Origin: Shigella phage KNP5
Length of the DNA stretch: 64,000 nucleotides
Direction: 5' to 3' (one strand)
Sequence record: KX452698
Part shown: positions 30,323-31,102 of the stretch, one piece after another
Layout: the number at the start of each line of letters is the position of its first letter
How positions within the stretch are numbered: position 1 is the stretch's first letter
Made by a program: the position numbers and the translations under genes
Notes under the pieces: model-generated
The model's database searches: none
Told to the model about the DNA's origin: nothing
Seen by the model: only the letters and a program-made list of their open reading frames with translations

Positions 30323-31102
30323 ATGGCAGTAACAGGACCGTGGGTAGGATCGTCTGCAGTAGTTAATACAGGACAAAATTGGATGGGTGGTGCGGCCCAA
30401 CGATTAAGAATGGGCATTCCGTTCTGGATGAGTAATATGATAGGTCGATCTGTTGAAGTAATTCACACGCTTGGAGCAGACCATAACTTCAATGGTCAAT
30501 GGTTCCGAGATAGATGTTTTGAGGCAGGTAGTGCACCTATAGTGTTTAATATCACTGGAGATTTAGTATCATATTCTAGAGATGTTCCTTTATTCTTCAT
30601 GTACGGAGATACACCGAATGAATATGTTCAACTGAACATACACGGCGTAACGATGTATGGTCGTGGTGGGAATGGTTGGGCCGCTGGTGCAATTGGAGCA
30701 TCTGATGGCGGTGTATGTATCCAGAATGATATAGGTGGACGTCTGCGAATTAATAATGGCGGAGCTATTGCCGGTGGCGGCGGCGGCGGCGGTGGTTATT
30801 CACAAGCCAACAACTGGGCGGGAAAATATGTTTGTGGTGGCGGCGGCGGTCGTCCATTCGGCTTAGGCGGAAATAATGGTGCTCGATGGCCTGGTGGTAA
30901 TGCTAGTTTGACGTCTCCGGGTGCTGGCGGTAATACTGGTACAAGGTATTATGCAGGTGGCGGTGGTGAAGTTGGTCAGCCAGGACAATATGCTAATCCA
31001 GGTGCTGGTTATTCAACACCTCCGACAAGTCCTGGCGCTGCTGTAGCAGGATCAGCTCCAACATGGCAGAATGTTGGAGCAATATATGGTTCAAGAGTAT
31101 AA
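30323..31102 (+). CDS. 38: tail fibre adhesin gp38 (T2-type, glycine-rich motifs)
   Basis: Start trimmed from TTG 30311 to ATG with GGAGG SD; 259 aa; several poly-Gly tracts separated by variable segments. Confidence 0.85.
30766..30968 (+). repeat. GGY-codon tracts in gene 38 encoding poly-glycine motifs
   Basis: Runs of GGT/GGC codons (e.g. GGTGGCGGCGGCGGCGGCGGTGG) encoding GGGGGGGG, GGGGG, GGGG. Confidence 0.7.

Follow-up and report, generated by a model that had tools for sequence, protein, structure and literature searches.

A T2-type tail-fibre tip adhesin encoded by gene 38 of Shigella phage KNP5 and its probable recognition of OmpC

Identity and domain layout of gp38

The gene that follows gene 37 in Shigella phage KNP5 (sequence record KX452698) carries a name, gene 38, that stands for two unrelated proteins. 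[quoted passage not shown] Which of the two proteins KNP5 encodes, and which receptor its adhesin would recognise, was addressed by sequence and structure comparison within a window that comprises the whole stretch of DNA analysed (64,000 nucleotides). Gene 38 (30323..31102) lies on the + strand, as do all gp38 features described below; it starts with an ATG at 30323, finishes with a TAA whose last base is 31102, and encodes a protein of 259 aa plus stop. It is preceded by a Shine-Dalgarno sequence, GGAGG, located 5 nt ahead of the ATG (30313..30317, + strand) and unchanged in the phages AR1, PP01 and pSs-1. A 263-aa version of the gene starting from the TTG at 30311 was rejected because all gp38 homologues begin with MAV...; this version is a mechanical extension of the reading frame, and its TTG lies inside the Shine-Dalgarno region.

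Two Pfam families of T2-type adhesins are matched by the translated protein over the full length of their profiles. The N-terminal model Gp38_N (PF21721; 77 bits, cut-off 25, E 1.1e-21) covers aa 1-40 with profile positions 1-40 of 40, and the main model GP38 (PF05268; 246.2 bits, cut-off 25, E 4.3e-73) covers aa 45-259 with profile positions 1-218 of 218. The protein also matches PHROG 2056, described as 'tail fiber protein; host specificity' (7e-110), and gp38 of the Salmonella phage S16 (PDB 6F45_D; E 6e-53, spanning residues 1-257). Its closest structural counterpart is the receptor-binding domain of PP01 gp38, solved by crystallography at 2.1 A (PDB 9V85_A), of which 221 out of 223 residues are the same in KNP5. 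The initial annotation had proposed that this gene encodes an adhesin of the T2/T6/Ox2 type and not the T4 chaperone, and both parts of this proposal are borne out by the two Pfam models, PHROG 2056 and the dissimilarity to T4 gp38. The reading of KNP5 gp38 as a non-structural chaperone of the T4 type can draw on the gene name and on the position downstream of gene 37, which is all that the two proteins have in common. The similarity to T4 gp38 is undetectable, the best BLASTP hit having an E value of 18 over 26 residues, the lengths differ (259 versus 183 aa), and the adhesin families are matched from end to end. The partner protein points in the same direction, since the C-terminus of KNP5 gp37 is formed by an S74 chaperone domain, as in S16, T2 and T6, and identity to T4 gp37 over the last 250 residues amounts to only 0-1%. 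A T4-type chaperone is thus virtually untenable here and was rejected on sequence. The profile, the N-terminal domain, the order of motifs and the gene position are all those of the T2-type family, to which KNP5 gp38 can be assigned firmly.

T2-type adhesins are modular proteins in which an N-terminal attachment domain is followed by four hypervariable segments placed between five glycine-rich motifs (Trojet 2011). [quoted passage not shown] The attachment role of this domain is that described by Trojet 2011 and in chimera experiments with PP01 (PMC12892980). It is followed by a conserved body (aa 41-112, 30443..30658) that corresponds to the part of the PP01 and S16 structures named the beta-helix domain (PMC12892980), and that is 100% identical to AR1 and PP01, 92% to Ox2, 83% to T6 and 42% to T2. 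The remainder of the protein (aa 113-259, 30659..31099) is the putative specificity domain, a polyglycine-II sandwich bearing five receptor-recognition loops according to its invariant glycine columns and to the description of the 9V85 structure.

The glycine scaffold and the recognition loops

The glycine-rich motifs of gp38 are conserved and occur in a fixed order between hypervariable segments, and the C-terminal end of the protein is conserved as well. Three uninterrupted glycine runs, as had been expected from the initial annotation of a 259-aa protein with several poly-Gly tracts, were located within these motifs. The longest one consists of eight residues, GGGGGGGG (aa 151-158, 30773..30796), encoded by the codons GGT (GGC)5 GGT GGT, and its aligned columns are invariant at aa 151-157. 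The second run, GGGGG (aa 172-176, 30836..30850), is followed by a conserved RPFG, and the third one, GGGG, occupies aa 212-215 (30956..30967). The columns of the runs are invariant across all 11 adhesins aligned. Glycine accounts for 23.6% of the whole protein and for 32.7% of aa 113-259, a region in which the G+C content rises to 53.5% versus 35.8% in the window as a whole. Of the 143 stop-to-stop frames with 80 aa or more in the window, runs of at least four glycines are confined to the gp38 frame, which also has the highest glycine content. The sole occurrence of such runs in this frame, its top glycine content and its raised G+C therefore show that the runs are not a product of chance. 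Since 221 of 223 residues are identical to 9V85, a 99% identity to a crystal structure, the specificity domain can be expected to adopt the same polyglycine-II sandwich fold with protruding loops; protein identity, family and fold can in this case be read directly from the translated gene.

To compare segments, gp38 was aligned with its counterparts from sb4, Sfk20, EC121, pSs-1, AR1, PP01, Sf22, T2, T6, S16 and Ox2, and identity was scored segment by segment using the loop limits of the PP01 crystal structure (PMC12892980). Loop A (WAAGAI; aa 119-124, 30677..30694) is 100% identical in AR1 and PP01 and 0-17% identical in T2, T6, Ox2 and S16. Loop B (aa 161-170, 30803..30832), which is preceded by Y159, is the same as in PP01 and AR1. 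Loop C (NNGARW) is formed by aa 184-189 (30872..30889) and loop D (NTGTRY) by aa 204-209 (30932..30949), the latter with R208 where PP01 has G208. Loop E (NPGAGYS; aa 225-231, 30995..31015), the main specificity loop, is again the same as in PP01 and AR1. When the five loops are pooled, identity amounts to 100% with AR1, 97% with PP01, 46% with Sf22, 17% with Ox2, 14% with both T2 and T6 and 11% with S16, and single loops are 0-43% identical to those of T2, T6 and S16. The glycine-rich motifs, by contrast, are 77-100% identical throughout the adhesins compared, and the view put forward initially that glycine tracts separate variable segments is thus well founded (77-100% in the motifs versus 11-17% in the loops with T2, T6, Ox2 and S16). 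All residues known to be functionally critical in PP01 are kept in KNP5, i.e., Y159, Q161, K168, Y169, Y209, A228 and Y230. Judged by loops A-E, including Y159, Y209, A228 and Y230, KNP5 gp38 can be placed in the AR1/PP01 subtype of the family.

The gp38 of AR1 (BAI83267.1; AP011113, 157736-158515) is the closest of these systems. It also has 259 aa, is 99% identical, and all of its loops and glycine motifs are those of KNP5, including R208, A228 and S236; the two proteins differ at three residues (G22V, I32A and S257P), all outside the loops and glycine motifs. The gene order and the hairpin between gp37 and gp38 are likewise identical in AR1, whereas its gp37 is 80-97% identical by segment and the backbone of the KNP5 window is pSs-1/KNP1-like and not AR1-like. 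PP01 gp38 (PDB 9V85; BBC14589.1), for which the OmpC contacts have been mapped experimentally, shares with KNP5 the 221 of 223 residues cited above over aa 37-259. It differs at 10 residues in total. Eight of these fall within residues 1-19 of the attachment domain; the other two are G208R, which affects the loop D residue involved in cross-linking, and N236S, just past loop E. The S16 tip (PDB 6F45) has the same domain order, with 51% identity over the full-length gp38 and 62% in the N-terminal domain, and its gp37 tip and S74 chaperone are homologous to those of KNP5 (E 1e-42). S16 likewise binds OmpC, but the OmpC in question is that of Salmonella; its loops are 11% identical to those of KNP5 and its loops B and E are shorter. 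In T2, T6 and Ox2, the Pfam family is that of KNP5, the order of the five glycine motifs and the C-terminal end are conserved, and the gene occupies an equivalent position. They differ in overall gp38 identity (49-50% for T2, 64% for T6 and 64% for Ox2), in the loops (14-17%), in the type of N-terminal attachment domain (MAVVGVPGW... versus MAVTGPW...), in the gp37 tip and in the receptor, which is FadL/OmpF, Tsx and OmpA, respectively.

KNP5 gp38 is accordingly an allele of a well-characterised and structurally solved adhesin, the biology of which is already known. The exact C-terminal 76 residues of the protein occur in no other record of the phage collection, in which the best full-length matches reach 98.7%. 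Escherichia phage KNP1 (KX452694, Tequatrovirus pss1), the nearest public genome, shares 99.9% identity with KNP5 over the 20 kb around gene 38. The KNP1 record is unverified and contains runs of N opposite window positions 29238-29713 and 30782-30919, which correspond to gp37 aa ~753-912 and gp38 aa ~154-199; the gaps that these runs produce in the alignment were rejected as real differences. The KNP5 window supplies the sequence that is missing from KNP1, namely distal gp37 and the glycine repeat, loop B and loop C of gp38.

Receptor and host range

The receptor predicted for KNP5 gp38 is the outer membrane porin OmpC of the O157 type, probably with some contribution of LPS, because its loops are those of AR1 and PP01, both of which are users of OmpC. 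For AR1, the use of OmpC goes back to Yu et al. 2000, as cited in the review PMC9603124. [quoted passage not shown] 2026, PMC12892980). Loop E of PP01 enters a cleft between loops 5 and 7 of OmpC, and cross-links have been obtained between G208 in loop D and OmpC loop 5 and between Y230 in loop E and OmpC loop 7. A GVIN insert in loop 7 of the O157 OmpC, which is missing from the K-12 OmpC, is essential for PP01. Residues 158-170 of the adhesin are essential and Y159A abolishes infection, K168 and Y169 probably make contact with sugars of the LPS, and Y209 is essential, whereas G208 is dispensable, its deletion and the G208A substitution having no effect; A228 and the conformation around Y230 are also needed (all in PMC12892980). 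The loops thus contact the receptor experimentally in a nearly identical protein, which supports the initial idea that the variable segments specify the receptor.

The receptors initially listed as candidates, OmpF/FadL, Tsx and OmpA, would follow from an adhesin with the specificity of T2, of T6 or of Ox2/K3/M1, respectively. Such an assignment would be consistent with the shared family and glycine scaffold and with the 83-92% identity that the body of the protein (aa 41-112) shows to T6 and Ox2. However, adhesins that use the same receptor have their hypervariable segments in common (Trojet 2011), and the loops of KNP5 are 14% identical to those of T2, 14% to those of T6 and 17% to those of Ox2, versus 100% to those of the OmpC-using AR1. 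The alignment to T2, T6 and Ox2 gp38 that had been suggested for predicting the receptor therefore places KNP5 in none of these specificity groups, and it is highly improbable that FadL/OmpF, Tsx or OmpA is the receptor; none of them is predicted, and the match of the loops to AR1 and PP01 favours OmpC.

The R208 residue raises the question of whether an adhesin of the same OmpC type could have in practice a host range other than the O157-restricted one of AR1 and PP01. KNP5 might reach Shigella or other OmpC alleles of E. coli, or bind LPS in a partly OmpC-independent manner, owing to R208, S236 and a divergent gp37 tip. Among the relatives compared, R208 is present only in AR1, KNP1 and KNP5, and it introduces a positive charge where PP01 gp38 makes contact with OmpC loop 5. 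Close relatives vary at positions 208 (R/G), 228 (A/S/V) and 236 (S/N), as well as at 232, 171 and 117. Small changes are known to matter in this family, since few or even single substitutions shift specificity between PST and T6 and between SV76 and T2 (Trojet 2011), and substitutions in PP01 gp38 (Q161H/R and W189R) yield host-range mutants able to infect an ompC-null strain. A different range would also fit with the genome backbone, which is of the same species as that of Shigella phage pSs-1, with near-identical receptor-binding domains in phages from S. flexneri, S. sonnei, LF82, O177 and mastitis E. coli, with the OmpC-independent infection brought about by gains of positive charge in PP01 gp38, and with the implication of K168 and Y169 in LPS contact. 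Relatives that are 3-5 residues away (R208G, A228S or A228V, S236N) were isolated on Shigella; those with S228 or V228 are Shigella isolates, and one of the relatives, Sfk20, lysed none of the E. coli strains tested. Against a different range, AR1, which has the same R208, A228 and S236, is described in PMC9603124 as O157:H7-specific and OmpC-dependent, changes at G208 are neutral in PP01 as mentioned above, and K-12 MG1655 is not lysed by phage SYGD1, in which R208G is the single difference in the receptor-binding domain. On balance, a practical host range that departs from that of AR1 and PP01 is fairly unlikely. The narrower proposal that R208, together with a gp37 tip that exactly matches that of no sequenced relative, might alter the range of OmpC alleles or confer LPS binding independent of OmpC with respect to PP01 is less likely still; if true, KNP5 would represent a natural single-residue host-range variant on the backbone of a Shigella phage, pSs-1.

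The gp38 of SYGD1 (MW883059, 146-931) is in itself a natural chimera, in which an N-terminal domain of the T6/Ox2 type (aa 1-47) is joined to the KNP5-like receptor-binding domain. The host field of its GenBank record names K-12 MG1655, in conflict with the table of the corresponding paper, in which MG1655 is not lysed. Following this published host-range table, the host field was dropped as a contradiction of PP01-type specificity, and the non-lysis of MG1655 agrees with such specificity.

With O157-type OmpC as the favoured receptor, an annotation of KNP5 gp38 as an OmpC-binding adhesin of the AR1/PP01 type would be more specific than the generic 'T2-type', and a requirement for OmpC of the O157 type can be expected for the phage. 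The map of loop residues already published (Y159, K168/Y169, Y209, A228 and Y230) should moreover be directly usable for retargeting the KNP5 fibre.

The gp37 partner and the fibre-gene neighbourhood

The partner that would bear gp38 is the distal half-fibre protein gp37, which has 1103 aa and is encoded by gene 37 (26980..30291, + strand). It matches S16 gp37 (6F45_A) over aa 914-1103 with an E value of 1e-42. Its C-terminal region (aa 993-1103, 29956..30288, + strand) is a predicted intramolecular chaperone that starts at the conserved SDIRVKKD and contains a Peptidase_S74 match (PF13884) at aa 993-1052. The motif VY(I/V)RSDxR(L/V)K at this site is conserved in the gp37 proteins of T2, T6, K3, Ox2, M1 and AR1. 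In T2 and T6, gp37 is proteolytically cleaved before gp38 caps it (Trojet 2011), and by homology the chaperone domain of KNP5 gp37 would also be cleaved off before capping. The S16 structure, PDB 6F45, contains three gp37 chains and one gp38 chain, which suggests one adhesin per fibre and, by homology, a 3:1 stoichiometry in KNP5.

From these data, gene 38 of this Tequatrovirus very probably encodes a T2-type, OmpC-recognising adhesin that acts through a mechanism of four steps. In the first one, gp37 would trimerise by means of its own C-terminal chaperone domain of the S74 type and then be cut at about Ser993. One gp38 molecule would subsequently dock by its N-terminal 40 residues on the exposed gp37 tip. 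The C-terminal glycine motifs would form polyglycine-II helices stacked as a flat sandwich, from which loops A-E are presented at the distal end of the fibre. [quoted passage not shown] The binding of OmpC is envisaged as the reversible first step of adsorption and as the one that sets the host range. In KNP5, the cleavage of gp37, the 3:1 stoichiometry and the OmpC receptor of this model are predictions by homology.

The gene order gp35-gp36-gp37-gp38-t shows the same synteny in PP01, AR1, T2 and T6. In the KNP5 window, gp34 is encoded at 21256-25128, gp35 at 25137-26252 (+ strand), gp36 at 26315-26971 and holin t at 31133-31789. The DNA of gene 37 between 27423 and 30022 (+ strand) has a patchwise appearance, as its identity switches among AR1, PP01, pSs-1 and sb4. 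At the tip, aa 851-992 are 87-96% identical to AR1, and the tip-coding stretch 29623-30022 is 85-93% identical to AR1 and PP01 versus 76-81% to pSs-1, which belongs to the same species as KNP5. This patchwork is a recombination mosaic typical of T-even fibre genes and represents a known behaviour. Three further observations concern these genes. The gp37 residues 418-562 match the C-terminal trimerisation domain of gp34 (PF21446) and solved gp34 structures (E ~1e-11), and the two half-fibres have therefore a module in common. Residues 58-123 of gp35 match, above the cut-off, the Pfam ILEI domain (PF15711, E 4e-8), a domain with a eukaryotic name ('Interleukin-like EMT inducer'). In Shigella phage sb4 (PQ666542, 1161-4469), the gp37 region is annotated as three CDS, which points to frameshifts or sequencing errors.

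A T4-type late-promoter motif, TATAAATA, is present on the + strand at 26284..26291, 24 nt ahead of gene 36, and again at 21214-21221 (+ strand), 35 nt ahead of the gp34 start. The motif occurs seven times in the window, a count that is within chance, so that only its positions are suggestive. No copy was found directly upstream of gene 38 or between genes 36 and 38. Transcription of genes 36-37-38 would likely begin at the motif at 26284..26291, with the three genes presumably being co-transcribed. Matches to sigma-70-like promoters and to terminators within 30000-32300 are at chance level, apart from two hairpins. The first hairpin (30295-30312, + strand), which separates the gp37 stop from the Shine-Dalgarno sequence of gp38, has a 7-bp G+C-rich stem and a UUCG loop; a folding energy of -17.3 kcal/mol (z = -2.2) was obtained for its 61-nt context, and the hairpin is identical in AR1, PP01 and pSs-1. 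In T2/K3, T6, Ox2, M1 and T4 a stem is kept at this position with different bases. The K3 record labels the gp37-gp38 hairpin a potential transcription terminator; on the + strand no T-run comes after it. The second, terminator-like hairpin (31832-31864, + strand), located 43 nt past the holin t stop, combines a 14-bp stem with a T-rich tail and lies inside the 3' end of a convergent 90-aa ORF (31790-32062), which corresponds to asiA in PP01 and AR1.
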